From positions 59,163 through 123,162 of the forward strand of contig JARRRI010000022.1 of assembly GCA_037380845.1 (NCBI GenBank): a stretch of 64,000 nt of DNA, given 5' to 3'. This document shows, in pieces, positions 4 to 34,819 of this stretch (its first letter is position 1; each line of letters starts with the position of its first letter). The position numbers were made by a program, and so were the translations under genes. Under the pieces are notes generated by a model, which saw nothing but the letters and a program-made list of their open reading frames with translations, had not been told where the DNA came from and ran no database searches. The stretch is from Candidatus Sulfobium sp. GTDB taxonomy: Bacteria > Nitrospirota > Thermodesulfovibrionia > Thermodesulfovibrionales > UBA6898.

Positions 4-88
4 GTCATGCCCGAGGTAGTAATCAGGCCTGCCGGCAGGCATCCATGTGTCCAAAAGTGGATCCCCGCCTGAGACCTGCGGGAATGAC
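4..88. repeat. REP-like palindromic element, family A (GTCAT(T/G)CCCG...CGGGAATGAC), with nested CCTGCCGGCAGG
   Basis: GTCATGCCCG at 4, CGGGAATGAC ending at 88, CCTGCCGGCAGG at 28-39; same layout as copies at 34894 and 53161. Confidence 0.8.
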
Positions 89-172
89 GGATTTGAAGCC
101 GTTTTTGGTTCAACGGAAGCTGGAAGATACTCGCACATAAAGAAAATCAGCCGGGGCACCGCATCGGCGTCG

Positions 173-790
173 TCACAGCGCCGTCTTCGCGTTCTCGATG
201 AAGCGCTTCATCTTTTCATGGTCCTTCTTTCCCTTCCGGTGCTCAATGCCGCTGCTTACGTCCACGGCGTAAGGCCTGACGCGGCCGACCGCGGCCGCCA
301 CATTCTCCGGGGTGAGGCCGCCGGCAAGGATGACCCTGCCGAACTGTTTCGCCTCGACTGCTATGTCCCAGTTGAAAATCCTGCCCGTCCCCCCAAGGGA
401 GTCGGGAGTATAAGTATCGAGAAGAAAGGCCGACACCAGGTTTCTGAAGCCTTCAAGGGGCGAGAGGCTTTCCAGGGACTTCACCCTGATAGCCTTCACC
501 ACGCGGCGTGAAAACGCGCACATGTCGGGGGTTTCCTCCCCGTGCAGCTGTATGACATCCAGGCCGGTCGACGACAGTATGGACTGAATATTCTCCGGCG
601 TTTCGTTTACGAATACGCCCACGGACACTACAAATGAAGGAAGCGACCTGATGATGGAGGAAGCTTTTTCAGGTGAGATAAAACGCGGGCTGTTCCTGTA
701 AAAAACAAACCCGAGTGCATCCGCACCGTACCCGACGGCGGCCCCGGCATCTTCGAGGTTTGTAATTCCGCAGATCTTTACCTTGACCAT
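173..790 (-). CDS. trpF: Phosphoribosylanthranilate isomerase
   Basis: VKICGIT, ADALGFVF, QLHGEE, LLDT..GGTG..F.W, LAGGL, DVSSGIE motifs. Confidence 0.97.
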   Translation of the reverse strand: MVKVKICGITNLEDAGAAVGYGADALGFVFYRNSPRFISPEKASSIIRSLPSFVVSVGVFVNETPENIQSILSSTGLDVIQLHGEETPDMCAFSRRVVKAIRVKSLESLSPLEGFRNLVSAFLLDTYTPDSLGGTGRIFNWDIAVEAKQFGRVILAGGLTPENVAAAVGRVRPYAVDVSSGIEHRKGKKDHEKMKRFIENAKTAL

Positions 791-792
791 TT

Positions 793-833
793 TTACAATA
801 TACCAGGCGGATAATCCGCCTGGTATATTGTAA
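793..833. promoter_or_regulatory. Perfect 20-bp inverted repeat carrying an extended -10 (TG-G-TATATT) 6 nt before the trpF ATG
   Basis: TTACAATATACCAGGCGGAT-A-ATCCGCCTGGTATATTGTAA; no Shine-Dalgarno before trpF. Confidence 0.6.
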
Positions 834-841
834 TATTTAAT

Positions 842-2100
842 CTAGACGACGGGCAATCTGTCGAGGGCTTCCTTTATCTTCTCCTCCGGATATTCATAGT
901 CGACCAGTTTCCCGGAAAGGTAATTCTCGTAGGCGGCCAGATCGAGGTAGCCGTTGCCGCTGAGGTTGAAGAATATAGTCTTTTCCTTCCCCTCTTCCTT
1001 TGCCCTGAGGGCCTCATCGATAGCCCCCCTGATGGCATGCGCGCTTTCCGGAGCCGGGATTATCCCCTCCGTCTTCGCGAACTGGATGGCGGCCTCGAAC
1101 ACTGCCGTCTGTTTATAGGCAATCGCCTCCATGAGATTGTCGTGATAGAGCTGGCAGACCAGAGGGGAATCGGCATGATACCTCAAGCCCCCGGCATGTA
1201 TTCCTGGCGGCACAAAATCATGCCCGAGGGTATACATCATCAGGAAGGGGGTGAGGCCCGCTGTGTCGCCGAAGTCGTATCTGAATTCTCCCTTTGTAAG
1301 GGTCGGGCATGATGTCGGTTCAACGGCGATTACCCTTAGGTCCTTCCCGTTGATCTTGTCCTGCAGGAAGGGGAAGCTCACCCCGCCGAGGTTGCTGCCG
1401 CCTCCGCAGCAGCCGACTATGACGTCGGGATAGTCCCCGGCGAGTTCGAACTGTTTTTTGGCCTCCAGTCCGATGACGGTCTGGTGCAGGAGGACATGGT
1501 TCAGGACCGAGCCGAGGGCGTAGTTCGTATCGCTGTGAGTGGCCGCGATCTCGACCGCCTCTTCCCGCCCCAGGTCTCCATCATGATTCGCCGGTAGGGC
1601 TTCTGGTCATAGCTGACCTTGACCATGAAAACGGTTATGTCGATACCGAAAAGGCTGCCCGCAAGCGAGAGCGCCGACCCCCACTGCCCGGCCCCGGTCT
1701 CGGTAGCGATCCTTTGTACCCCTGCAGCCTTGTTGTAATATGCCTGGGGTATCGCCGTGTTGGGCTTATGGCTTCCGGCCGGGCTGACGCCTTCATATTT
1801 ATAGTAGATCTTCGCGGACGTACCGAGGGCCGCTTCGAGCCTGTGCGCCCGGTAAAGGGGAGACGGTCTCCAGAGGCTGTAAATCTTCAGGACTTCTTCG
1901 GGTATGTCGATCCACCGCTCAGTAGTAACTTCCTGCTCTATGAGTGACATCGGAAAAATCGCGCTCAGATCGTCGGGCCCCACCGGCTGTTTAGTCCCGG
2001 GGTGTAGGGGGGGCTTCGGAAGGTTGGGCATGTCCGCCATTATGTTGTACCACTGTTTCGGAATGTCCCTGTCGGGCAGTACGATCTTTGTCTCTTGCAT
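842..2100 (-). pseudogene. trpB: TrpB2-type tryptophan synthase beta-like PLP enzyme, broken by an internal deletion and frameshift near 1560
   Basis: N part: WRPSPL, GSHKPN (PLP Lys), [15 protein letters not shown] part resumes in another frame at 1561: [47 protein letters not shown]. Confidence 0.85.
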
Positions 2101-5835: not shown

Positions 5836-6243
5836 TCACTTACCCTTCGTAACCTGCGGGTCTTCTCTGCAGTCATACCTTCTGCATCTCAAAGGCCTTT
5901 CGGACCAGACAGAGCACCTGAGTGAACCTCGTTCAAGATGCGGGCAGTATCCGTCGCCGTCCCTTGCGATGAAGAAGGGCCGGGAAAGGTTATGCTTCAG
6001 ATGGCCCTTCCGTACCTCCTCTTTTGTGAGCGCGAACTGAAAAGTACAGCAGACCGCCCTGCACCATTTCAGGTTCGATTCGCAGTCCACGCTCGCATCG
6101 GGCACGCCCTCGTCTTCCTGCCCGTAAACGGCACAGACCCCCATCTCCATCATCTTTTGCATGAGGGACAGGATCTTCTCTCTATGCTCTGCCGATATGT
6201 TCAGAGCGTCCGGACCGGATTCCATCAGTGGGTCGTCATCCAT
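5836..6243 (-). CDS. YkgJ-like cysteine-cluster (Zn/Fe-S) protein
   Basis: C...CRAVCC, CPHL, CSVW..RPLRCRRYDC. Confidence 0.8.
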   Translation of the reverse strand: MDDDPLMESGPDALNISAEHREKILSLMQKMMEMGVCAVYGQEDEGVPDASVDCESNLKWCRAVCCTFQFALTKEEVRKGHLKHNLSRPFFIARDGDGYCPHLERGSLRCSVWSERPLRCRRYDCREDPQVTKGK

Positions 6244-6246
6244 ACT

Positions 6247-7002
6247 TCAGGGACCCCAGTTGATCACCCGGTCACTGAAATCCACGTAATACTTTAACCC
6301 CCTCAGGAAATCCATGCCCAAAAGGCCGTCCCGTCTCTCGCGAAGCCCTTTTTCTTCCATGATGGAAACTATCATATCCCGCTTTGTGTGGGGACCGACA
6401 CTGACATATCCGAGCCTTGCGAACGCGGCCTGGAGGACGGCTCCCCCGACCACCTGCCCCTCTCCTCTCACTGTTTCAGCAGGATCTATACCCAGCTGGT
6501 CCGCTATATCGGTGTTTATCATCGTCACCGTGGCTCCCGTATCGAGCACAAGCCGGACGTAAACCGTTCTTCCCTTGTATTCCAGGGTTGCCGGTACCAG
6601 CACATGATTGCCTGATATGGCAACCTTCGTCTGTCTGCTGTCCTCCCCGCCGTACGGCCTGCGCGGCCCTGTCGACCCTACATATTGCCAGGACTCCTTC
6701 TTCTGCGGCCTGTCCAGAGTTTCGCACTGCACGTACCCTGTGACCGACGTTTGTCCCTCTTCAGTGACCCCGCACCAAGCCCCCTCCGGCCCCTCGATCT
6801 CGACATCAACGACCACCTGCTCCCCCTTCCCGAGATATTTCAGCAGCCTGCTGTCGGCGGACATTCCCGAATATACCGGAACCCTATCCGACCTCACGAC
6901 CGCGCCGTCCGCCGACGCCTCCGCCCTTCCGTTGTAAAGCGGGCAAGCGCCGCAGATTATCAGGATGACAAATGCCGTAAAAAAATATCTAAAGATGTTC
7001 AT
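6247..7002 (-). CDS. Exported SH3-like + retropepsin-type aspartyl protease
   Basis: Signal peptide; SH3-like W..V...GYV; LDTGAT catalytic motif; GLLGMDFL. Confidence 0.85.
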   Translation of the reverse strand: MNIFRYFFTAFVILIICGACPLYNGRAEASADGAVVRSDRVPVYSGMSADSRLLKYLGKGEQVVVDVEIEGPEGAWCGVTEEGQTSVTGYVQCETLDRPQKKESWQYVGSTGPRRPYGGEDSRQTKVAISGNHVLVPATLEYKGRTVYVRLVLDTGATVTMINTDIADQLGIDPAETVRGEGQVVGGAVLQAAFARLGYVSVGPHTKRDMIVSIMEEKGLRERRDGLLGMDFLRGLKYYVDFSDRVINWGP

Positions 7003-7115
7003 CGTGCCGCCTCCGGTATACCCTCATCCATAATATATCCAAATTCATCTGCTTTATATAGCCCCTCTTATGAGGCTACGGGAAACTATCGCAAAATTAA
7101 GCCTCTAAATAATTC

Positions 7116-7186
7116 GTCACTCTCGCCAAGGGGGAGGGCAACTTCGGGACTCGAACAACATGGATTCCCGCCTCCGCTGGGATGAC
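7116..7186. repeat. Family-A REP-like element
   Basis: GTCAC...TGGATTCCCGCCTCCGCTGGGATGAC. Confidence 0.6.
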
Positions 7187-9164: not shown

Positions 9165-10727
9165 TCAGAAATGCACTCCCGACTGAAACGCATCAAGAAA
9201 CGCCCTGTCGCCGGACAGGGCCAGATGCCGCACACTTCCGGCCAGAATACAAGCTTCCCTGAAAGCTCTCTTTGAAGCAGCCATCATTACGGCCCCGGTT
9301 GCTGCGGCATTACCCAGGCCGCGTACCCTGTCGCCGCAGTCAGAAGGTACCAGGCCTGCAGACAGCAAGTCCGAGGGTTCAATCATACCAGCGAAGGTTC
9401 CCGCCAGGTAAAAGGCCGTTAACTCCCCCGGCCTGACTCCTGTGCTGTTCAGCAGCGTGTCTACAGCGCTCCGTGCGGCAGCCTTTGCAAGCAGGAACTG
9501 CTGCACGTCGTTTTCGCTTACGGTGACGCCGGGTGCGAGTATGACCTCATTCCCCCCTTCGCCACGCCTTATCCGGCCGGGGAGGAAGAGGGGAGCCTGC
9601 ATTACGCCGAACGCATCCAGTGCCCCCGCCCGGAGCAGGCCGCCGATGAGGCTGAAGAGTCCCGACCCTGTTATGCCTCTGGCAGTGTCTCCATCTATCA
9701 CGGAGATGTCGAAATCCCCTTTGTCGAAAAAAACCTTATCAATCGCACCTGCCACGCCTCGCATGCCGCACGTAATGCCCATACCTTCAAAGGCGGGACC
9801 GGCTGCAGTGGAGCACGCTACCGTCTCTTTGTCGGTAACGACGGCAACCTCTGCGTTGGTTCCTATGTCAAGAAGCACGTAAGGCGGTTCCGGAGAAAAC
9901 ATTTTCAGCGAAAGCAGTGCCGCCACCATGTCACTCCCGACGAACCCGCCGATGATTGACGGCAGGTGGAGGAGGGCACCCTGAAGGAGTCCATTGACAG
10001 AAGGAAAAATGATGTGGACAGGACCATCGATGCCGGAGTCGCAAGGGTATCGTCCCAGAAGGTCAGGATCGGTTCCCAGGAGCAGCACTTCCATAGCCGT
10101 GTTCATCACCGCTACAACATCGGTGACCCGCTGGCCGGATCCTGTTTCTTCAACAAGTCTTTCGATGTCGGACAGCGCGGGTCTGCGGAGTATTTCACGC
10201 CCCTTCTCTCCGTTATGTGACGCATAAGATAAACGGCTCATTATATCAGCGCCGAAGACCGTTTGGCCGTTTTCTCTGCTGGCCGAGGCATCCACCCGGC
10301 CTGTGGCCGGGTCTACAAGGTGTCCCACAATGTTGGTTGTGCCAAGGTCCACTGCCAGAACCACACCTCTTTCCGCTTCCCTCCATGGAGCCACAGGAAA
10401 TAAAACCTGCTCAATCTGCAATTTATAATTCGTGCCGGCCGGAGACGGCGGACAATCCACTATCTCCCCGCCCGACGGGACAACTCCGCACGCGATACGC
10501 ATCCCCTCCGCCAGTTCATCCGCGGAGAGGTGAAGTCTGTCCAGCGAAGAAGGAACCGGTGCGTGGCCCGATATCCTGACCTTGCATTTCCCGCAGGTGC
10601 CGAGTCCCCCGCACTCGGAGTTTACCGCTATGCCTGCCTTTGCAAGGACATCGAAAAGACTTTTTCCCCGTTCAGCCTTCAGCGTGAGTCCCTGAGGCCG
10701 TATGGTAATGGAGACCTTACCGCTCAT
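9165..10727 (-). CDS. ASKHA-domain ATP-dependent corrinoid reductive activator (RamA/RACo type) with N-terminal 2Fe-2S domain
   Basis: CGGLGTCGKC..R.AC, DLGTT, GADIMSR, GGFVGSD, DIGTNAE, AGPAFEG, GNAAATGA; ATG 10727 overlaps the upstream stop (ATGA). Confidence 0.92.
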   Translation of the reverse strand: MSGKVSITIRPQGLTLKAERGKSLFDVLAKAGIAVNSECGGLGTCGKCKVRISGHAPVPSSLDRLHLSADELAEGMRIACGVVPSGGEIVDCPPSPAGTNYKLQIEQVLFPVAPWREAERGVVLAVDLGTTNIVGHLVDPATGRVDASASRENGQTVFGADIMSRLSYASHNGEKGREILRRPALSDIERLVEETGSGQRVTDVVAVMNTAMEVLLLGTDPDLLGRYPCDSGIDGPVHIIFPSVNGLLQGALLHLPSIIGGFVGSDMVAALLSLKMFSPEPPYVLLDIGTNAEVAVVTDKETVACSTAAGPAFEGMGITCGMRGVAGAIDKVFFDKGDFDISVIDGDTARGITGSGLFSLIGGLLRAGALDAFGVMQAPLFLPGRIRRGEGGNEVILAPGVTVSENDVQQFLLAKAAARSAVDTLLNSTGVRPGELTAFYLAGTFAGMIEPSDLLSAGLVPSDCGDRVRGLGNAAATGAVMMAASKRAFREACILAGSVRHLALSGDRAFLDAFQSGVHF

Positions 10728-11608
10728 GCGAGCCTGAAGAGCGGATGGGACATTTCCGGACACGACCCCTTTTCCAGACACAGCTGACCCATGGCAGCAT
10801 CGACCATCGCCACGGCAGGGAACACGGAGTCTGCCAAGGCCATGGGGCCATATATAACGAAGGTACCACCCCAGGCGATCGTCAGCGCGTTGACGACTGC
10901 CGTCGCAGGTTTGCGGAATTCTTTCCCGATCTTGCTCTTCAACCCGCCCCAGGTGCTGATTGCATTGTGTGCGGCAGCGCCGGGCAGATGGCCGAGCTGG
11001 CGCGCCTTTTCCATGACCTCCTTTGCCACCCCCATGGAAGGCAGGTCGATGATGCCGGGATCGATCAGAAAATCGGTGACGCCCCTGTCCATGAGCCGGT
11101 CAATAAGTCCTCCTTTCTCAGTCATCATGCGTATCTTTCCGTCCGCGGAAAAATCCGTGCTCTCCACAAGGAGAACCACCACCGTCGTGACACCGCACTC
11201 TCCGATGGCCTCGAACTCAGCCGGCGTGCTTTCAAGAGAAATGCTGTTATAGATGACACGGGGGGAAAGACCTTTTTCGGCAAGATAACGGATACCGGCG
11301 ATCTTTGCCTCGCCGCTTGTGCCGTCTATCATGAGGGGACCGGGGAAGACTTCCGTGATGAAATCGAGATAATTCCGCATCGCCTCAGGGGTCGAAGCTA
11401 TCACATCTATGCAACATGGATTCCCTGTAATTTCCGACCACCGTGACTGAAAGTCAATAAGTCGCCGAGCCTCTGCGCGGTCGAAGCAGCCGGCAAGGGG
11501 GTCAATCACCAGTCTCTGGCGGTCGAAAAAAATGCTCCCGGCAAGGAGCGACGGGGCAGCGCCTGCCTCTCCTCCCATTGGAATGCCGCACACCGTCCTT
11601 GTTTCCAC
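10724..11608 (-). CDS. MtrH/MtgA-like methylcorrinoid:pterin (THF) methyltransferase
   Basis: GG..G..P..L.GSIF, PLMIDGT, IYNSI, LIDP, G.A.HN, YGP. Confidence 0.85.
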   Translation of the reverse strand: METRTVCGIPMGGEAGAAPSLLAGSIFFDRQRLVIDPLAGCFDRAEARRLIDFQSRWSEITGNPCCIDVIASTPEAMRNYLDFITEVFPGPLMIDGTSGEAKIAGIRYLAEKGLSPRVIYNSISLESTPAEFEAIGECGVTTVVVLLVESTDFSADGKIRMMTEKGGLIDRLMDRGVTDFLIDPGIIDLPSMGVAKEVMEKARQLGHLPGAAAHNAISTWGGLKSKIGKEFRKPATAVVNALTIAWGGTFVIYGPMALADSVFPAVAMVDAAMGQLCLEKGSCPEMSHPLFRLA

Positions 11609-11609
11609 T

Positions 11610-11969
11610 CTATACCTCCCTTCTTTCGTTGAGTACGCAGCCGGCCTCCTTTAACATCCCACCGTCGGCAACCGCTGAAAGGATATCCTTCAGGAACTGC
11701 CTGGTGAGTCCCATGAATACAAGAGTTATACCCACATTACACACTCCTCCCTCGTAATGACCTTCGTTCCTGAGAAAAACACCGGAAGGGGTCAGCGTTG
11801 ACGATGCAAAACATCGTCCCCCCGAGAACTCTGCAAAAGCCTTGGCGTGCCCCAGGGTATCCTGGGGGAGGCGGTGGGAACATGCATCCAGTACAAGACG
11901 CAGCAACTCGGAAGGCGAAACCCCGCACTCGTTTAGTTTCCACTCTTCCGAATAAGTCGAAAATTGCAT
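11610..11969 (-). CDS. Small hypothetical protein resembling a detached CobW-associated C-terminal domain
   Basis: ATG at 11969 overlaps the GTPase stop (TAATG); LGHAKAF motif. Confidence 0.65.
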   Translation of the reverse strand: MQFSTYSEEWKLNECGVSPSELLRLVLDACSHRLPQDTLGHAKAFAEFSGGRCFASSTLTPSGVFLRNEGHYEGGVCNVGITLVFMGLTRQFLKDILSAVADGGMLKEAGCVLNERREV

Positions 11970-12562
11970 TACAAAAGTTCTTTCATGAGTCCGTCCGGAA
12001 GACCGTGCAGGACGCTCACCGGATAGACGGGAGCGCGATGTGCACAAAGTCCAACGAGATTGAAGAGATTGTCTTTGTCACCCTCTTTTATCTCATCCGC
12101 CTTATTAAGAAGGATTACGTCGGCCTCTCGAATCTGTCCTTCCATAAGGGGCCGGGCGGCCTTCATAAGAAGGGGCAGGCGGACACCGTCGAGCACCAGT
12201 ATTTTCTGGAGGGGGAAATTACCGTGTCTGTACAGGGAATCGAAGAGACGCGGCGCATCCGCCATGCCCGAAGGTTCCACAAACACCCGCGAGAACTCCC
12301 CGCTGCCAACCAGGGCAGTGAGCGTCTCGACAAAATCACCCACCACGGAGCAGCAGATACATCCTGCAAATATCTCCCTTACCGGAAGCCCGGCCGCATT
12401 CAACAGCTTTCCGTCCACGGGCACTTTTCCCGCCTCGTTTACAACGATGGCGGCCCGGTTTCCCGAGGCCGTAATGCCCCTGGCCAGATGAAGCATAAGG
12501 GTCGTTTTACCGGACCCAAGGAACCCGTATATTACGACCACCCGCGTTCCTTCCTCAGGCAT
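11969..12562 (-). CDS. CobW/COG0523-family G3E metallochaperone GTPase
   Basis: GFLGSGKTT, IVVNEAG..VDG, GCICC, VEPSG, LNKAD; ATG 12562 overlaps the upstream stop. Confidence 0.9.
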   Translation of the reverse strand: MPEEGTRVVVIYGFLGSGKTTLMLHLARGITASGNRAAIVVNEAGKVPVDGKLLNAAGLPVREIFAGCICCSVVGDFVETLTALVGSGEFSRVFVEPSGMADAPRLFDSLYRHGNFPLQKILVLDGVRLPLLMKAARPLMEGQIREADVILLNKADEIKEGDKDNLFNLVGLCAHRAPVYPVSVLHGLPDGLMKELL

Positions 12563-13631
12563 TGGCGGCAGGCCTGGGGTACGATTCCCTGACAAAGCTG
12601 ACTGTAAGGTCGTCATTATAAACGGTATCCTTTGCCGCCTGCACCATGGCGAGAATGTTGGCCTCAGGGGTCTTGGGATTCAGATCGCACCCGGCACCCA
12701 GAATGAAACCCGAACCCTTTGCCGCTTCCTCTATAACACTTCTGCTTTTCCAGTATACCGCCTCCGGCGTGCCATACAGCATATAATCGATGGGGTGCAC
12801 GTTGCCTGAGATGCATATCCTGTCGCCCACCTTTTCCTTACACTCCTTCATGCTGATGGGGTAGTCCAGCTGAAGGGCCAGTGCCCCGCAATCGGACATC
12901 TGGTCCCATATCAGGGAAGTGTCTGCACAGGTATGATTGACACCTACAACGCCCTTGGACCACGAAAAAGTGAACAACTCTTTCAGGTACGGGGCGGTAA
13001 ATTCCTCATACTGCTCCGGAGAAAGTATGGTGCAGGACGAGAAAGGCTCCAGGGCCACGATGGCATGAGAACCGGCCTTTATCAGCTCTTCCCAGTAAGC
13101 AAGCGACACGTCGGTGCAGATGCGCAGAAGCGAATGCACCCACTTCGGGTCCTCGAACGTGGCTATGAGCAGTTGTTCAGGACCATACAACTGACTGGCG
13201 GTGGTAAACGGACCACCGGTGACGGGAACGACGACCTTAGTGTCGTCCACCTTTTCCCTGAGCATCTTTATCTCTTCGCAGACATAAGGCATCCTCCCGC
13301 TTTTGAGGGGGTCCACCTTCTTAAGCTTGTTGATGTCGCTTCTGTCCTTGATGAAGTAATCGACGACCACGGCAGTGTGCTCATAGACTCTGACGGTAGA
13401 GCCCAGACTCTCGGCTTCTACAAAGAGGTCCGTACCAGCCACAACTGCATCGTCGTCGAATTTCTCGGTCCCTGCCATCTTCCCTTTCACCATCTTTTCG
13501 GGATTATGGAGACATTCTTCCGTGTTTAACCCCGCCACGCGAAGCGACCTCGTGATGGAAAGCGGGGTAACGGGAACGCGATCCGGCTTTTCGAGCTTGA
13601 TCGCTGCGACAATTCTTTCCAGTGAATTCAT
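12555..13631 (-). CDS. URO-D family (MtaA/MtbA/CmuA-like) Zn methyltransferase
   Basis: PDRVPV, VEAESLG, GPFT.A, HTC and GAGCD Zn ligands, GNV.P; GGAGG RBS. Confidence 0.92.
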   Translation of the reverse strand: MNSLERIVAAIKLEKPDRVPVTPLSITRSLRVAGLNTEECLHNPEKMVKGKMAGTEKFDDDAVVAGTDLFVEAESLGSTVRVYEHTAVVVDYFIKDRSDINKLKKVDPLKSGRMPYVCEEIKMLREKVDDTKVVVPVTGGPFTTASQLYGPEQLLIATFEDPKWVHSLLRICTDVSLAYWEELIKAGSHAIVALEPFSSCTILSPEQYEEFTAPYLKELFTFSWSKGVVGVNHTCADTSLIWDQMSDCGALALQLDYPISMKECKEKVGDRICISGNVHPIDYMLYGTPEAVYWKSRSVIEEAAKGSGFILGAGCDLNPKTPEANILAMVQAAKDTVYNDDLTVSFVRESYPRPAANA

Positions 13632-13655
13632 ATCAAACCTCCTTTTCCGGATATC

Positions 13656-14303
13656 TCATGCCTGTATCCCGATGAGCTGTTTCGCCGTATGGACGGCAGT
13701 GGGTGCATCGAAACCGCCGTAAGCATCGGCACCTATTTCAGCCGCAACTTTGGCACTGGTGGGTGGTCCGCCGATGATGGTCTTAGCCCTGATGCCTGAT
13801 GATTTCGCGAGAGTGCAGACTTCCTGCATCTTGTCAAGACAGATACTCATAATGAGCGACATACCGATGAGGTCGGCATCCACTTCTTTGGCCTTGTCGA
13901 TAAAGGCCTGTGGCTCCACGTCCACACCGAGGTCATACACTTTAAAACCGCCGGCTTTCATCATCATTCCCACGAGGTTTTTCCCGATATCGTGGAGATC
14001 GCCTTTCGGGGTGCCCAATACTATCTTGCCCTTGTAAGTCCCTTCCTTGCCGGCCATCCTCTCCTCCACCAGTGCCTGGCCTGCCGAAAGGGCCTTTGCC
14101 GCCATCAGGACATGGCTTATAAACCTTTCTTTCCTGATCCACATATCGCCTACCTCGGTAAGTCCTGCGGCCAGGCCTTTCACCACAATCTGCAGTGGAT
14201 CCATACCCGCATCGAGAGCTTCCCTGGTGGCAGCCTCCGTGTTGGCAACTGACATCGAAACGATAGACTGATGAATCTTGTCCAACAACTCCTCTTTTGC
14301 CAT
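13656..14303 (-). CDS. Cobalamin-binding corrinoid protein (methyltransferase cognate)
   Basis: GDLHDIGKNLV, DLGVDV, GMS, IIGG B12-binding signature; AGGAGG RBS. Confidence 0.95.
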   Translation of the reverse strand: MAKEELLDKIHQSIVSMSVANTEAATREALDAGMDPLQIVVKGLAAGLTEVGDMWIRKERFISHVLMAAKALSAGQALVEERMAGKEGTYKGKIVLGTPKGDLHDIGKNLVGMMMKAGGFKVYDLGVDVEPQAFIDKAKEVDADLIGMSLIMSICLDKMQEVCTLAKSSGIRAKTIIGGPPTSAKVAAEIGADAYGGFDAPTAVHTAKQLIGIQA

Positions 14304-14340
14304 CTTTCTCCTCCTTTCCCGGGACACCTGTGATATATTT

Positions 14341-14410
14341 AAATGTTATCAAATGTTAGAATATGTTGTCAAAGGCTAAAATATAGCAGAATATGTTAAG
14401 ATAGGGTATT
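14341..14410. promoter_or_regulatory. Array of 10-bp-phased direct repeats in the divergent promoter
   Basis: AAATGTTATC/AAATGTTAGA/ATATGTTGTC/AAAGGCTAAA/ATATAGCAGA/ATATGTTAAG/ATAGGGTATT. Confidence 0.65.
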
Positions 14411-14471
14411 TGGTTCGGTATTTTGGAATTAAAAAGATGAAAGCTGTTAATATAACGCGAGGTTGTATGAA

Positions 14472-14923
14472 ATGGAGTTTCTGACTATAGAAGAAGTAGC
14501 AAGGATCCTGAAGATGCACACCAATACGGTATATAAAATGTGCCGCGAGGGAAAGCTGCCTGCGGTCAAGATCGGAAAGGAATGGAGAATCAGCGCTGCC
14601 CGCTTTTCGCAATTCCTTGAGAGGGGAACCGGTGCAGGGAGCACTAATGCCGGGGAGGGTATCTTTCGGGACATTTTCAGAGGTGGACATGTCCTCGGCG
14701 TTTTCACGGAGAAAGAAGATATCCTGCCCTTATGGAGTTCGAAGATGCCCTTGATAAGGGCCTGCAGGGCCTGCCGGTGACAGGTGTCTGCTCGTATCAC
14801 ATGGACTGCAGCGTGGCTGACAGCTTTGCACGGCTGGCAGACCTGGTTTCGCGCCACGACCGTCTTTTCATCCGGACGCCCGAAAGATGGGTCGCTGCCC
14901 GCGACATCCGCACGTCCTTCTGA
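14472..14923 (+). pseudogene. Excisionase-like (HTH_17/BldC-type) HTH + MEDS (DcmR-type sensory) regulator, internally deleted and frameshifted near 14725
   Basis: LTIEEVARILKMH.NTVY...REGKLPA.KIG.EWRI, then GHVLGVF..EED; second frame LMEFE..L.....P..GVCSY...L..L..RH. Confidence 0.7.
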
Positions 14924-14945
14924 TCAAAAAAAGCACAATGAAGAT

Positions 14946-16073
14946 ATGAAGACCGCCTTCATTTACTCCGGAGACTTCGCGAAGTACGACTACGGTCAGG
15001 ATCATCCGCTCAAGCCCTTCAGGTTGAAGCTTACCCGCGACCTGATAAATGCATATGGTCTCCTCTCTCGACCGGACACCATCCTTGTCGAGGCGAAGCC
15101 GGCCGCGGACGCAGACCTGCTCCTTTATCACACGAAAGAATATATTGACCTCCTCAAGTCTGCAAACGCCGGCCTCCGCATGCCGGAACAGGAACGTTAC
15201 GGACTGGGCGCAGGGGACAATCCCGTATTCAAAGGCGTTTTCGACTGGTCAACACTGGTGACGGGTGCAACTCTCCAGGCTTCCGACCTCGTGGACAGCG
15301 GTCAGGTACAGGCCGCCTTCAACATCTCGGGCGGTCTCCATCATGCCCTCTCCTCCCGCGCTTCCGGATTCTGCTACATAAACGACCCTGTAGTCGCCAT
15401 CTCCTCCCTTGTAAGAAAGGGAAGGAGGGTTGCCTATGTCGACATCGATGCCCATCACGGCGACGGGGTGCAGGATGCTTTCTACCGTACCAACAGGGTG
15501 CTGACGATATCCTTCCATGAATCAGGCCGGTACCTCTTCCCCGGTACGGGTTTCGAAAATGAAACAGGCGAAGGTGAGGGAGAAGGCTACTCCGTTAACG
15601 TTCCAATGCCACCTGCGTCCGACGACGAGCTTTTCGTTTCCGCCTTCGACGAGCTGGTACCGCCGCTGCTCGAAAAGTTCAGGCCTGACGTCATCGTAAG
15701 CCAGCTCGGCGTCGACTCGTTCGTGGGCGACCCCCTGGCGCACCTGAACTATACGACGAACGGCTTCTGTGAAGTCATCGGTAAGATGACAGCGCTTTCT
15801 CCAAAATGGATCGCCCTCGGGGGCGGAGGATACGAGATAACCAACGTGGCCAGGGCGTGGACCCTCGCCTGGGCGATCATGAACGGCGTCGAGCTGCCCG
15901 ATGAGCTGCCAGCTCCGTTTCTAGAACAGTATCCCCTCGACGGATTCAGGAGCGGAAAGCTGAGGGATGCGAAGCATCAAGAAAAAAGGACGAAAAAAGA
16001 GATGAGAAGGGAGGAGGTGGAAAGGGCAGTAGCGGTGATCAAGGAAAAAGTGTTTCCTCTGGTGCACTTTTAA
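14946..16073 (+). CDS. acuC: Acetoin utilization AcuC / class I histone-deacetylase family
   Basis: HPLKP.R, GDNP, GGLHHA, SGFCY.ND, DIDAHHGDG, FPGTG, GVD..GDPL, GGGGY. Confidence 0.95.
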   Translation: MKTAFIYSGDFAKYDYGQDHPLKPFRLKLTRDLINAYGLLSRPDTILVEAKPAADADLLLYHTKEYIDLLKSANAGLRMPEQERYGLGAGDNPVFKGVFDWSTLVTGATLQASDLVDSGQVQAAFNISGGLHHALSSRASGFCYINDPVVAISSLVRKGRRVAYVDIDAHHGDGVQDAFYRTNRVLTISFHESGRYLFPGTGFENETGEGEGEGYSVNVPMPPASDDELFVSAFDELVPPLLEKFRPDVIVSQLGVDSFVGDPLAHLNYTTNGFCEVIGKMTALSPKWIALGGGGYEITNVARAWTLAWAIMNGVELPDELPAPFLEQYPLDGFRSGKLRDAKHQEKRTKKEMRREEVERAVAVIKEKVFPLVHF

Positions 16074-25706: not shown

Positions 25707-26722
25707 GGGGACGTTGTTGCTAATTGTGCTTTGTGGCGTGATATGCCTTCTCCACCCTCTCAATCGCGCGGGTAATGCTCGATGTATTCACCCCGACGTG
25801 TCGTGCTATCTCCGCCGAGGATAGCCCAAGTTCATCCCTGCTCCTGACCGCGATGAGTGACCGAGCGTCACTTACCTTGCGCCGCTTGCTTCCTCCCATT
25901 AATTCCGCAGGGCTTATTCCAGCCTCGCGACACTCTTCGTTGATTATCATCTGAATTGTTCGACCGGCCCGTCTGTGTTTAAGTTGCCTCAACTGTCGAT
26001 CTTCCGCCTCTTTAAGGACCTTGCTGACAAAGTCACCCCCGCCCAAGATGCGTTCATCGAATTCTTCTATCTGTCCCCTCCTTCGCAAGGCCAGAACCTG
26101 TGACCATCCCCCCTGGCTCCTGATGAGTCCCCCGCCCGTCAGTTCCTTACTCTCTCCCTCGCTGCTTCCTTCTCTCATGAATTTCCGATATGCATGAAGA
26201 GCCTTCCGACGGGAACTGCCAAACTGGGCCAGAACGTGGTCGGTATCCATCCAGGGTCTATCGGATTTACCAACCATGTCACGATGGCCGCCCCACGGAT
26301 AATGGTCCAATTCTTCCATGGTCTTGACGACCTTAGTCCTAAGAGGATTCAAATGGATGTAGCGGACAAGGGCCAAAAGGTAGTTGTCTTCTTCGCAGAG
26401 AACTGATTTGTATCTGTTTTCAAAGAGGTGTCCGGTGCGATGATGCCGGCGGTTATAGTACTGCGCGTACCACGTGAGCAGTCTTCTCATGACCGAGGAT
26501 ATCCCCTCTTTTCCGCTCTTAAAAAGAATATGAACGTGATTGCTCATGAGGACCCAAGCGTAGACTGTACATTTACCCTCAATTACATGCTGCCCCAGCC
26601 GCTCCAGAAAACGGGTCTTGTCCTCAGTGTCTTCGAAAATCTCGGCCTTATTGATACCCCGAACCATAATATGAATCCCCCTTCCTTGTCAAGCGAAATG
26701 CACTTATAGAAACAACGTCCCC
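25707..26722 (-). mobile_element. RAYT-like Y1 (HUH) transposase element bounded by terminal inverted repeats
   Basis: GGGGACGTTGTTGCTA (25707-25722) and TAGAAACAACGTCCCC (26707-26722), 15/16 match, enclosing the transposase gene. Confidence 0.8.
25720..26667 (-). CDS. REP-associated tyrosine transposase-like protein with C-terminal DnaA-C-like HTH; N-terminus probably truncated
   Basis: (HI)MVRG, LMSNHVH (HUH), GHLFE.RYKS, YIHLNP, C-term S.AEIAR..G. Confidence 0.9.
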   Translation of the reverse strand: MVRGINKAEIFEDTEDKTRFLERLGQHVIEGKCTVYAWVLMSNHVHILFKSGKEGISSVMRRLLTWYAQYYNRRHHRTGHLFENRYKSVLCEEDNYLLALVRYIHLNPLRTKVVKTMEELDHYPWGGHRDMVGKSDRPWMDTDHVLAQFGSSRRKALHAYRKFMREGSSEGESKELTGGGLIRSQGGWSQVLALRRRGQIEEFDERILGGGDFVSKVLKEAEDRQLRQLKHRRAGRTIQMIINEECREAGISPAELMGGSKRRKVSDARSLIAVRSRDELGLSSAEIARHVGVNTSSITRAIERVEKAYHATKHN

Positions 26723-32100: not shown

Positions 32101-32952
32101 GTGACGCCGGTTTCGGCGCTGGTATATTCCCTTTTTTTCGGGCTGCTCCACGGGATACTGCCGGACGAGCATACGTGGCCCATCACGTTCAGCTATGCCA
32201 TCGGGGGGGCCGGAGGAAGGGAGGGCATGAAGGCGGGGCTCTACTTCTCCGCCGCATTCACGGTGCAGCGTATGATCCTCTCGGAAGTCGCCTATCTGGC
32301 ACTTGCCCCGTTTCTTCTTTCCCGAACGGTCAACGGCTACGTCAACATGATAGTGGGCGTTACAATGTGCGTTGCGGGGGCCATAGTGCTGAAGAGGAAC
32401 CTTTATCCCCACTTCCACCTCTTCGGACATTGCCACGGCGAGGAATGTGACATGGAGGACTCTAAGAAGGTTTTGACAACAAGGCACGAAGAACCGGCCG
32501 GCGGCCCGAAGGCGCCCCCGGTGCGATGGACCGTCGTACACGGGTTCATAGCGGGCTTCGGCTTTGGCGGATTTTCCCTGTTCATCAACACCGTCGCAGC
32601 CCCGGCCATGAAGACCCCCTGGCTGGGGTTCTTGCCGGGACTCCTCTTCGGCCTGGGGACCATGGCCATGCTCATGATCATCGGCGCCCTGTTCGGGGCC
32701 TCTCTTCGCTGGACGCATTCGCTCACTGAAGATGAGGTGAAAAAGATCGGCTCACAGACCGGGGGCAGGACCCTCTTCTTCGGCGGCCTACTTTTCGGGG
32801 CGTTCGGGCTTTCGCTGCTCCTTGGTCTTGACCGGAGTCTGCCGGTTGACGCGGGCTATGTCCTGATCGGCCTCTTCATGGTGCTGGTTGCGGTTCCGGC
32901 GTTCATCTTTTCGTGGAGGCAGGTGCTGGCGGCAAGGGAGGGCGGAGGGTAA
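32101..32952 (+). CDS. Membrane protein, possibly NicO/DsbD-like metal (Ni/Co) transporter
   Basis: GLLHGI.PDEH, His-rich loop HFHLFGHCH, HG..AG, FGLGTM. Confidence 0.6.
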   Translation: MTPVSALVYSLFFGLLHGILPDEHTWPITFSYAIGGAGGREGMKAGLYFSAAFTVQRMILSEVAYLALAPFLLSRTVNGYVNMIVGVTMCVAGAIVLKRNLYPHFHLFGHCHGEECDMEDSKKVLTTRHEEPAGGPKAPPVRWTVVHGFIAGFGFGGFSLFINTVAAPAMKTPWLGFLPGLLFGLGTMAMLMIIGALFGASLRWTHSLTEDEVKKIGSQTGGRTLFFGGLLFGAFGLSLLLGLDRSLPVDAGYVLIGLFMVLVAVPAFIFSWRQVLAAREGGG

Positions 32953-33058
32953 TCACTTAGATGGGTTCTTTAAAATGACATTTATAATATTTCACCACGG
33001 AGACACAGAGGGCTCAGAGAATATAAATGGAAAAGACAGGCGTGAGCTGACAAGACCG

Positions 33059-34819
33059 ATGCGGCTTTGCCGACTTCTCCTGCTGGCCGTCGTCACGGGG
33101 GCGCTTGCCGGACTGGGGGCCGCGGTGTTCAGGGCCATGGTCGGGCTTTCCCACAACCTCCTTTTTCTGGGCCGCCTGTCGGTAACCTATGATGCCGGAC
33201 GCCATACCGCGGCCGGACCGTTCGGGTGGCTCATTATATTCGTTCCGGTTGCAGGCGCGGCGGCGGTGACCTTTCTTGTGAAGAACTTTGCACCGGGCGC
33301 GCGGGGCAGCGGTGTGCCGGAAGTTATGGATGCGGTCTATTATAACCGCGGTGTCGTGCCGCCCACCACCCCGGTCGTAAAGGCGCTGGCGTCGTCAATC
33401 TCGCTGGGAAGCGGGGGGTCCATCGGCCGTGAGGGTCCGATCATGCAGATAGGAGCGTCGCTGGGCTCTTTCCTCGGCCAGATATTCCCCGTCTCGGTCT
33501 GGGAGCGCAATACTCTGATAGCCGCCGGCGCCGGCGGAGGGATCGCAGCCACCTTCAGCACGCCTATCGGGGGCCTTCTCTTCGCGGTGGAACTCCTTCT
33601 CTTCGAGGTAAGCGCCCGCACGGTGATACCCGTCGCCATATCCACGGCCACGGGGGCATATGTCGGGAGCGTCCTTCTGGGCGCCAGTCCACCTTTTGTT
33701 GTAACCGGCGTCGAATCCTTCACCTTCCAGGCGATCAGGCCGACGGTGCTCCTTGGGTATGCCGGCCTCGGTGCGTTGACTGGCGTGCTCTCCGCCTTCT
33801 TCATAAAAGCCGTATACGGTTTCGAAGACGTTCTCGGGAAATACACGCCGCAAAATTACTACCTGAGACACATGGCGTCCATGTTTGTCGTGGGTCTGTC
33901 GCTCTACCTGCTCATCAGGTTCACCGGGCATTATTACATAGAGGGGGTGGGCTATGCCACGATACGCGACGTGCTTTCCGGCCTGCTCTCTCGCCCGTAT
34001 CTGCTCGTTGCCCTCTTCCTCCTTAAGCTTTTGGCCACCGCGATGACGCTGGGCTCGGGGGCATCAGGGGGCATCTTCTCGCCGTCGCTTTACATGGGGG
34101 CGATGGCGGGGGGACTTTACGGCATGGCCGCGCTTGCACTCTTCCCGGCGGTTTCCCCGGATGTCTCAGCCTTTGCCGTGGCCGGCATGGCGGGAATGGT
34201 GGGGGGTTCGACAGGAGCGGCCATGGCTACGGCTGTGATGATCTTCGAGATGACCCTGGACTACAGCGCTATTGTCCCCATTATCATTACCGTCGCGGTC
34301 AGCTACGGTGTCAGAAGGCTGTTTACCTTCGAAAGCTTTTACACCATGAAGCTTGCTAGACGGGGGCACGGCGTTCCGGACTCCTTTCAGACGAATATGC
34401 TCAGGCTCAGGAAGGCCCGGGAGGTCATGGACACAGGTGTTAAGACTATCCCGGCAGAAACAACGCCCGATGAACTGGGGCGCATCGCCTCCGGGGAGCC
34501 GCTGATCGCTTATTTCCTCGTCGAGGACCGGTCCGGCCGGATCACCGGAGTAATAGAAAAGGTCGCCTCCCCGGTCCTCCTCGAAAAATGCGGTATGGGA
34601 ATGAGTATGGGTGAACTGGCGCAGAGAGATTTTGCCTTTGTGGAGGAGGATATCTCAGTATCCGAAGTTATCACAATGCTGCACGGCGGCAAGGTCTCCG
34701 TCGCACTGGTGACATCGTCAGGGCTCAGAGGGACCGGGACGCCGGAGGTCAAGGGAGTGATTACCAACAGGCAACTCGGCGCAGCAGCCCTCGAATCGGC
34801 CGCCAGTTTTTCCGAGTAA
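33059..34819 (+). CDS. ClC chloride channel/antiporter with CBS domains
   Basis: GSGVPE, GREGP, F.TP..G..F..E, GGIFSP, FEMT, C-terminal CBS pair; start uncertain. Confidence 0.92.
   Translation: MRLCRLLLLAVVTGALAGLGAAVFRAMVGLSHNLLFLGRLSVTYDAGRHTAAGPFGWLIIFVPVAGAAAVTFLVKNFAPGARGSGVPEVMDAVYYNRGVVPPTTPVVKALASSISLGSGGSIGREGPIMQIGASLGSFLGQIFPVSVWERNTLIAAGAGGGIAATFSTPIGGLLFAVELLLFEVSARTVIPVAISTATGAYVGSVLLGASPPFVVTGVESFTFQAIRPTVLLGYAGLGALTGVLSAFFIKAVYGFEDVLGKYTPQNYYLRHMASMFVVGLSLYLLIRFTGHYYIEGVGYATIRDVLSGLLSRPYLLVALFLLKLLATAMTLGSGASGGIFSPSLYMGAMAGGLYGMAALALFPAVSPDVSAFAVAGMAGMVGGSTGAAMATAVMIFEMTLDYSAIVPIIITVAVSYGVRRLFTFESFYTMKLARRGHGVPDSFQTNMLRLRKAREVMDTGVKTIPAETTPDELGRIASGEPLIAYFLVEDRSGRITGVIEKVASPVLLEKCGMGMSMGELAQRDFAFVEEDISVSEVITMLHGGKVSVALVTSSGLRGTGTPEVKGVITNRQLGAAALESAASFSE

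Follow-up and report, generated by a model that had tools for sequence, protein, structure and literature searches.

Little is known of the anaerobic sinks of methyl halides, compounds that destroy stratospheric ozone. To our knowledge, the characterised corrinoid-dependent systems that act on such halides are limited to Cmu of aerobes, Cdm of an acetogen and mec of dichloromethane fermenters, and many corrinoid methyltransferase cassettes are uncharacterised. In the accounts of Bernhardt et al. (2026) and of Kountz and Balskus, as far as they are excerpted here, the UroD superfamily spans O-demethylases, the first methyltransferases (MT1) of haloalkane systems (CmuA, MecE, MecC and CdmB) and coenzyme M (CoM) methyltransferases, with CmuA, MecE and MecC on early and separate branches (Bernhardt et al., 2026). 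The stretch studied here, called the window below, comprises 64,000 nucleotides of a Candidatus Sulfobium sp. genome (contig JARRRI010000022.1, positions 59,163 to 123,162) and carries on its minus strand (9165-14327) a cassette of six co-directional genes. They encode a corrinoid protein (CoP), a UroD-superfamily methyltransferase (URO-D), a CobW-type GTPase with a small partner, an MtrH-like methyltransferase and a reductive activase. The cassette is real, conserved as a unit and uncharacterised; full-text literature searches found no description of it, in agreement with an earlier note on this DNA that had supposed it to be an uncharacterised C1 module. We tentatively read it as a corrinoid-dependent methyl-transfer operon of the Cmu kind made from separate parts, which would move the methyl group of a methyl halide or a similar small substrate via the CoP to tetrahydrofolate (THF), and we hold this reading at somewhat less than an even chance.

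The unit recurs in other genomes and in metagenomes. Orthologues of the URO-D enzyme form a group of 36 clusters with 92 to 49% identity, after which identity drops to 39%, and 24 loci with such an orthologue were found, six in the genome scan and 18 in the metagenome scan. Metagenome contigs supplied some of them, and the others stem from metagenome-assembled genomes whose titles name Ca. Sulfobium, Thermodesulfovibrionales, Nitrospirae/Nitrospirota, Nitrospinota or Thermoleophilia. The CoP gene lies 5' of the URO-D gene in all 20 loci that reach upstream, and the MtrH-like gene follows downstream in all 18 loci that extend that far. RACo comes after MtrH in 13 of the 14 loci extending beyond it (it is absent in L047). 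CobW occurs in 18 of the 21 loci that are informative on it (all but L016, L018 and L019) and the small partner in each of the 15 loci with a complete CobW and following sequence, two of its matches being detected by profile alone. Even in L037, where the CobW and small-partner genes are displaced, both are kept. A helix-turn-helix (HTH)-MEDS gene adjoins the cassette in 13 loci, divergently in 11 and on the same strand after RACo in L018 and L043. The flanks, annotated for seven related loci, vary from locus to locus and hold no linked transporter. The recurring gene order and the variable flanks bear out the self-contained unit that had been described from the letters of the window. In L037, DsrE-family and pyridine-nucleotide-disulfide oxidoreductase genes (13169-14763, plus strand) lie right after the displaced small partner, a possible sulfur link found in this one of the seven annotated flanks. 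The URO-D gene of the cassette occurs in two of 26 relatives (host genome included), solely within its genus, and in one of 151 genomes sampled from the class, which is the host genome itself; this rarity fits a mobile accessory module.

Pfam and NCBIfam searches of the window placed the six genes in the families named in the earlier note, with the subtype of the activase as the exception. Neighbouring genes overlap or are separated by gaps of 1 to 24 nt: the overlap between URO-D and CobW measures 8 nt, that between CobW and the small partner is TAATG, a 1-nt gap separates the small partner from the MtrH-like gene, and the MtrH-like stop and the RACo start share ATGA. The description of the genes as mostly translationally coupled is therefore correct. 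AGGAGG ribosome-binding sites precede the starts of CoP and URO-D. The starts of CoP, CobW, the small partner and RACo given in Table 1 were refined from the reading of these junctions, and that of CobW also from the lengths of its relatives. The open reading frame (ORF) 14784-16073 belongs to the histone-deacetylase family and lies outside the cassette.

Table 1. Features of the cassette and its divergent regulator, in window positions.
Feature	Positions	Strand	Details
RACo-type ATP-dependent reductive activase	9165..10727	-	ATG 10727; Pfam Fer2 + Raco_middle + RACo_C_ter
MtrH-family methylcorrinoid:pterin methyltransferase, proposed second methyltransferase (MT2) to THF	10724..11608	-	294 aa; PF02007 219 bits
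Small partner of the CobW GTPase	11610..11969	-	119 aa from ATG 11969; ferredoxin-like fold
CobW, COG0523/CobW-type GTPase, proposed zinc chaperone	11969..12562	-	197 aa from ATG 12562; PF02492 114 bits
URO-D, MtaA/CmuA-family (UroD-superfamily) zinc methyltransferase, proposed MT1	12555..13631	-	358 aa; PF01208 252 bits
CoP, corrinoid protein	13656..14303	-	215 aa from ATG 14303; Pfam B12-binding_2 + B12-binding
Divergent promoter region	14304..14471	-	sigma-70-like promoter + YAACA boxes
HTH_17 + MEDS (DcmR-like) regulator gene	14472..14923	+	broken at 14721-14724 in assembly

The URO-D enzyme gives one indication of a relation to Cmu. Phylogenetic trees were built from URO-D orthologues, 37 to 84 other homologues, the paralogues of the own genome and two CmuA N-terminal domains, with HemE as root. 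Among these sequences the URO-D clade is sister to a group of the two CmuA domains and the uncharacterised P0037-39 (FastTree 100; IQ-TREE SH-aLRT 99), and a further tree gave the same sister grouping with ultrafast bootstrap (UFBoot) 100 and SH-aLRT 100. The joint clade with CmuA comprises 14 rows, i.e. nine orthologues, P0037-39 and the two CmuA domains. Relatives of the sister clade include CmuA-type fusions of about 600 aa that join URO-D and B12 domains; the CmuA-type fusion P0174 is 36% identical to the cassette enzyme over its whole length (E 1e-69), and the paralogues of the own genome stay below this at no more than 30.4%. Among the best annotated matches in a plasmid collection is CmuA of M. 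extorquens CM4, with 28.9% identity across 96% of the query. The tree grouping favours the halomethane option among the substrates considered earlier. Row P0103, which is SCMT-type because it scores above the cut-off of PRK06252 (methylcobalamin:CoM methyltransferase), lies away from the URO-D clade.

Residues H233, C235 and C315, the zinc ligands, are invariant in the 36 orthologues. Since CmuA too has HxC...C ligands, the His-Cys-Cys pattern cannot separate a halide from a sulfur substrate. The closest solved structure is MtaA (4ay7, E 6e-32), and no chain of an O-demethylase or of CdmB was found at E <= 1e-3 in the structure search. The ESM Atlas returned generic URO-D clusters alone. No fused forms were found among proteins of 628-2000 aa at E <= 1e-20, which is a weak result as the CmuA-type fusions of about 600 aa fall below that length range. 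The earlier note had also stated that an MT1 of the MttB, MtaB or MtvB type is missing. Pfam indeed detected no MttB- or MtaB-type MT1 in the cassette and no MtaB in the whole host genome, and on the absence of MtaB methanol was rejected as substrate. For MtvB the contrast is not clean, since MtvB-type O-demethylases are themselves placed in the UroD superfamily in the excerpted text of Bernhardt et al. (2026).

The MtrH-like protein points in the same direction. CmuB is itself a member of the MtrH family, and its identity to the cassette MT2 is 31.5% over 92% of the query. MtrH-like proteins serve as folate-side MT2s, and MtoA methylates tetrahydrofolate according to the excerpted account of Kurth et al. 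(2021). The cassette protein itself scores under the NCBIfam cut-offs for true MtrH and for MtgA (179 bits against 550 for the MtgA model). The statement in the earlier note that MtaA/CmuA-like, MtrH-like and DcmR-type genes occur together in halomethane clusters agrees with CmuB being MtrH-family and with MecE and MecF being found in mec, as described in the available part of the mec preprint. Since the URO-D clade is sister to CmuA and CmuB is MtrH-family, we tentatively interpret the cassette as a split version of a Cmu-type system, extended by an activase and a two-piece zinc chaperone. The CoP keeps the histidine ligand of the DxHxxG motif, is 35% identical to the C-terminal corrinoid domain of CmuA and reaches no NCBIfam equivalog cut-off. 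The activase consists of a [2Fe-2S] ferredoxin domain, the Raco middle domain and an ASKHA C-terminal domain. A RACo_linker domain, present in two paralogues of the own genome, was not matched in it by Pfam. With 83.5 bits against the archaeal RamA model TIGR04270 (cut-off 500), the cassette activase is by its sequence of the bacterial RACo type, and the designation as RamA-type had to be dropped.

The CobW GTPase and the small partner may form a metallochaperone in two pieces. The P-loop (G16-T21) and the CxCC motif (C68, C70 and C71) of the GTPase are invariant in 12 orthologues, and its relatives are 197-200 aa long. A C-terminal CobW_C domain is absent from the 197-aa protein, in which Pfam recognised the GTPase domain alone. 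The small partner has no Pfam or NCBIfam match. Its AlphaFold2 (AF2) model shows a ferredoxin-like alpha/beta domain (predicted local distance difference test score, pLDDT, 92.6), it carries an invariant LGH..K motif and its family is rare: a set of 1.84 billion proteins holds only 27 representatives, almost all of which stand alone as small proteins. The top Foldseek match is the COG0523 protein YjiA (E 1.3e-3, probability 1.00); a second aligner returned ferredoxin-like matches of a generic kind (Z up to 9.0), without YjiA among its 50 listed entries. A model of the complex of GTPase and small partner scored 0.66 and the best of three controls 0.01; the mark for this score was reached by 116 of 157 solved complexes and two of 215 mismatched pairs, counts that are approximate as own alignments were used. 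The model runs agree in at least 94% of contacts, the partner has a pLDDT of 88, and the modelled interface places the invariant LGH motif against the P-loop side of the GTPase. The modelling thus supports that the two proteins bind, and the small partner appears to supply the missing C-terminal domain of the GTPase. We read the pair as a split COG0523 chaperone encoded by two genes, which may deliver zinc to the site of the methyltransferase.

Elsewhere in the host genome (G000:C41:18135-19598, corresponding to L024:12136-13599) a second URO-D gene lies directly 5' of another CobW GTPase gene, and the two were read as one 487-aa frame in the ORF call (URO-D model positions 3-261, then cobW). 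That cluster also holds CbbQ, a further URO-D, a CoP, RACo and a B12-type ABC transporter. URO-D is thus linked to CobW twice in the host genome. L018, the Thermoleophilia locus that is without CobW and small partner, has a gene for a ZIP zinc transporter immediately upstream of the cassette (6224-7162, minus strand).

The regulator gene that was described as a divergent HTH-MEDS gene is present, divergent and starts with an excisionase-type HTH, but it is not intact in the window, where it is split into two ORFs of different frame. Alignment of the DNA with relatives showed that it is without 301 nt of L015 and 268 nt of L014, a gap which takes out the core of the MEDS domain, and PF14417 (MEDS) has no match anywhere in the host genome as assembled. 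All five relatives that were scanned have complete HTH_17+MEDS proteins of 242-281 aa (MEDS E 1e-11 to 3e-18). Logan contigs of all four public DNA runs that were aligned with the region contain extra sequence at 14721-14724. In X1 and X5, which are possible source runs, one contig of 6799 nt matches the window as far as 14724, then has 297 extra letters and resumes the match at 14721, and in X9 and X10, runs of another study, loose ends occur at exactly 14721-14724. Since extra sequence is seen in all four runs, the break probably reflects a fault or collapse of the assembly, or else a minor variant, and the regulator of the organism itself is probably intact, DcmR-like and about 253 aa long. 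The missing stretch of about 301 nt suggests a local assembly collapse, and other frameshifts in the window may be artefacts too. A PALP (TrpB-like) gene (842-2100, minus strand) is split into the ORFs 842-1381 and 1501-2100, which cover the C- and N-terminal halves of the Pfam model; either the gene is broken or the assembly is at fault here too.

A sigma-70-like promoter lies about 40 nt 5' of the CoP start (TTGACA at 14372-14367, an 18-nt spacer and TAACAT; 10 of 12 positions matched). YAACA boxes are spaced 10 nt apart at about 14368, 14358 and 14348, with another near 14398. Intergenic DNA of diverged loci has such boxes at 10- or 20-nt spacing around TTGACA, and related repeats occur in relatives. 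In eight of nine loci at most 31 of 1000 mononucleotide shuffles reached the observed number of boxes, the exception being L017 with 205 of 1000. The boxes look like a conserved putative operator that overlaps the promoter, and by analogy to DcmR this arrangement fits repression by the HTH-MEDS protein. In the available part of the mec preprint, some marine mec cassettes are flanked by dcmR homologues. Locus L040 encodes a second MEDS protein without HTH (46-846, minus strand; PF14417 E 2e-46) about 1.6 kb from the HTH-MEDS regulator of its cassette.

By marker genes the host genome of 3.18 Mb is 100% complete. It encodes FTHFS, two copies of FolD, MTHFR, acetyl-CoA synthase and a DsrA that scores above the model cut-off. 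Methyl-THF therefore has a route to CO2 or acetyl-CoA. Public runs containing the stretch are labelled as marsh or salt-marsh metagenomes, and none of the 15 runs listed is an RNA run. Salt marshes are strong sources of methyl halides. The genome holds three other corrinoid methyltransferase clusters, one of which is the URO-D and CobW cluster described above. The second (L023; G000:C14:2466-13839) comprises MTHFR, URO-D, CMD, MtrH, URO-D, CoP, a 4Fe-4S protein, RACo, DUF6951 and a CCG/Hdr-like protein; its MtrH match contains one in-frame TAG. The third (L025; G000:C30:36208-43005) holds a pair of MttB-family genes along with those for a Pterin_bind MT2, a corrinoid protein and a 227-aa protein that weakly matches the activation domain of MetH (Met_synt_B12); it is a system of the quaternary-amine type whose activation-domain neighbour is unusual.

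The host genome encodes neither a MetH homocysteine-binding domain (PF02574) nor the MetE/Mes family (PF01717). Among the 26 relatives including the host, PF02574 occurs in none and PF01717 in two, so that both are absent in 24. Methionine must therefore be formed in this lineage by an enzyme that has gone unrecognised, and one of the other UroD/corrinoid systems possibly takes this role. The cassette itself is ruled out as the methionine synthase of the lineage by its presence in only two of these relatives and in one of the 151 class genomes.

From these parts we infer a substrate, a direction of transfer, a way of zinc delivery and a mode of regulation as follows. The zinc-containing (His-Cys-Cys) UroD-family enzyme would move a methyl group from a small, membrane-permeant donor to the Co(I) form of the CoP. 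The donor would most likely be a methyl halide (CH3Cl, CH3Br or CH3I), possibly dichloromethane too. The MtrH/CmuB-like enzyme would hand the methyl group from the CoP to THF, and methyl-THF would enter the THF methyl branch and acetyl-CoA synthase of the host, to be oxidised with sulfate as acceptor or assimilated. RACo would re-reduce inactive Co(II) in an ATP-driven reaction, and the GTPase together with its 119-aa partner would supply the methyltransferase with zinc, as a COG0523 metallochaperone in two pieces. The divergent HTH-MEDS protein would bind the phased TAACA boxes over the promoter and release them with substrate, as DcmR does. Passing a methyl group from a halide to THF is strongly favourable, whereas with a thioether as donor the step is uphill, by about 30 kJ/mol. 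A methyl halide is the best single guess because of the phylogeny, these thermodynamics, the type of regulator, the lack of a transporter in the annotated flanks and the marsh labels of the runs.

Taken further, sulfate-reducing Nitrospirota, as well as Nitrospinota and Thermoleophilia of marsh and marine sediments, may consume methyl halides anaerobically by a third and as yet unrecognised type of dehalogenating methyltransferase system, in which a split CmuA-like MT1 and a CmuB/MtrH-like MT2 are combined with an own two-piece COG0523 chaperone and a DcmR-like repressor on phased TAACA operators. We regard this wider proposal as rather doubtful. If true, it would represent a hidden sink inside one of the largest natural sources of methyl halides, and a Cmu-related system in marsh sulfate reducers would bring a new guild to this sink, and a gene marker with it. 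If methanethiol or dimethyl sulfide were handled instead, the cassette would fill in the long-missing enzyme for methyl-sulfide oxidation by sulfate reducers. The compact system of six proteins is suited to reconstitution, and in its GTPase and partner it offers the first candidate for a zinc chaperone in two pieces that is dedicated to a corrinoid methyltransferase.

Several observations weigh against an assignment to the Cmu kind. MEDS regulators also control genes of methanol and methyl-sulfide methyltransferases in Methanosarcina, and no chloride or proton transporter is linked to the cassette. The URO-D enzyme scores 232.0 bits against TIGR01463 (MtaA/CmuA) and misses the cut-off of 235.4 by about 3 bits, compared with 458 for the CmuA N-terminal domain and 264 for the fusion P0174, and its identity to CmuA is low. 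The closest relation to CmuA holds among the sequences included, since MecE, MecC, MtaA, MtbA, MtsA, MtpA, CdmB and MtoB were absent from the trees. The separation of P0103 from the URO-D clade has marginal support: forcing the two together cost 42.8 log-likelihood units (lnL) with a p value of 0.041 in the approximately unbiased (AU) test, for a group that was picked with the tree already in view. PDB 8z9u_B (E 2.8e-57) and MtgA, a methylcorrinoid:THF methyltransferase (6sj8, E 2.4e-44), are nearer to the MtrH-like protein than CmuB is; a literature search on 8z9u found no relevant paper. The CoP has His at the ligand position of DxHxxG where CmuA and P0174 have Gln, and it is no closer to the CmuA domain than to a paralogue of the same genome (38.5% identity). 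Lastly, a His-Cys-Cys zinc sphere marks the S- and Se-methyltransferases of the UroD superfamily in the excerpted part of Kountz and Balskus.

The invariant His-Cys-Cys ligands could thus also point to a role of the cassette in taking methyl groups from methylated sulfur or selenium compounds (methanethiol, dimethyl sulfide, methylmercaptopropionate or methyl selenides) in the manner of MtsA, MtpA or Mlp, with the MtrH-like enzyme passing the methyl group to THF for oxidation by the sulfate reducer. A dedicated zinc chaperone, the marsh and salt-marsh labels and the volatility of such substrates, which need no transporter, would agree with this, as would the DsrE and oxidoreductase genes of L037. 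That context is confined to one flank in seven, however, the transfer from a thioether is uphill, and the trees, which hold no MtsA or MtpA, join the clade to CmuA, away from the SCMT-type P0103; we consider demethylation of this kind improbable. The unfavourable energetics would disappear if the cassette ran in reverse as a split MetH-like thiol methylase, from methyl-THF via the MtrH-like enzyme and the CoP to a thiol, sulfide or selenide (e.g. a CoM-like thiol), which is the thermodynamically favoured direction. The zinc site and the structural similarity to MtaA are compatible with such a thiol acceptor, the operon L023 combines MTHFR, two URO-D genes, MtrH, CoP and RACo with an Hdr-like CCG protein, and MetH and MetE are absent from the lineage. 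The cassette is too rare, though, for a role as methionine synthase, its substrate-sensing MEDS regulator and patchy spread across phyla better fit an accessory catabolic module, and its clade groups with CmuA, so that reverse operation seems to us an equally improbable explanation.

Still less probable, and in our view very unlikely, is an O-demethylase for methoxylated aromatics of the Mto/Odm type. URO-D, CoP, MtrH-like protein and activase would then correspond to MtoB, MtoC, MtoA and MtoD, the same four-part architecture with an MtrH-like MtoA for THF (Kurth et al., 2021, in excerpt). But in UroD-superfamily O-demethylases carboxylates or non-ligands replace one or both Cys ligands, as far as the available text of Kountz and Balskus describes them, and the His-Cys-Cys set is retained throughout the 36 orthologues of the cassette. 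The mto operon includes MFS transporters in the excerpt of Kurth et al. (2021), and none of the seven annotated flanks has a linked transporter for aromatic compounds. The clade moreover groups with CmuA, in trees built without MtoB, OdmB and CdmB. On balance we retain the Cmu-kind operon as the tentative interpretation.

Two other genes of the window were noted. A CLC chloride channel with a CBS domain (32888-34819, plus strand) lies 18 kb from the cassette, and no CLC channel adjoins the cassette in the seven related loci with scanned flanks. An ORF at 25720-26667 (minus strand) joins an IS200-like Y1 transposase domain with a DnaA C-terminal HTH.

Compared with described systems that share single parts, the cassette resembles the type 1 mlp clusters of anaerobes in its MtaA-like UroD protein with His-Cys-Cys ligands, its corrinoid protein and its bacterial-type activase. 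Those clusters are defined in the excerpted text of Kountz and Balskus by two or three Mlps (at least Mlp2 and Mlp3) and the lack of a folate methyltransferase, whereas the cassette has one UroD protein and the MtrH-like enzyme. Mto (MtoABCD) and MtgA of Desulfitobacterium likewise combine a soluble MtrH-like methylcorrinoid:THF methyltransferase with a corrinoid protein and an activase in the sources as excerpted, and MtgA (6sj8) matches the cassette MT2. Their MT1 is an O-demethylase (MtoB) or of the MttB family (MtgB), unlike the MtaA/CmuA-type MT1 of the cassette. The COG0523 zinc metallochaperones YjiA, ZigA and CobW share the P-loop and the CxCC metal motif with the cassette GTPase, in which the C-terminal domain is missing and a separate 119-aa protein of a rare family may take its place.

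Among the halide systems, Cdm (CdmBCA of Acetobacterium dehalogenans) offers an anaerobic three-part relay from methyl halide via a corrinoid protein to THF with a UroD-superfamily MT1. According to the available part of Bernhardt et al. (2026), CdmB is closest to O-demethylases (31% to MtoB) and CdmA is MtqA-like, not MtrH-like. The mec cassettes of Dehalobacterium, Ca. Dichloromethanomonas and Ca. Formimonas resemble ours by gene content, with the corrinoid protein MecB, the MtaA/CmuA-family MT1 MecE, the MtrH-family MT2 MecF and the RACo-like MecH. Their hosts use the Wood-Ljungdahl pathway as well, and dcmR flanks some marine mec cassettes (mec preprint; Holland et al., both in excerpt). 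In these accounts mec has three UroD-superfamily genes (MecC, MecE and MecI) in place of one, together with a PocR histidine kinase and response regulator (MecA/D), MecG, MecJ and a cation antiporter. Its further genes are all missing from the cassette, which has CobW with its partner instead. Cmu of Methylorubrum extorquens CM4 (pCMU01) and pJM105 belongs to aerobic methylotrophs and our cassette to anaerobes. CmuA fuses MT1 with a corrinoid module that has Gln in place of the His ligand, whereas the cassette encodes both as separate proteins and retains the His; the cassette is also without cmuC and includes RACo, CobW and partner and the MEDS regulator. Both systems nevertheless have a UroD-family MT1 with HxC...C ligands, a corrinoid module and an MtrH-family folate MT2, and the MT1 clade of the cassette is sister to the clade that holds CmuA.

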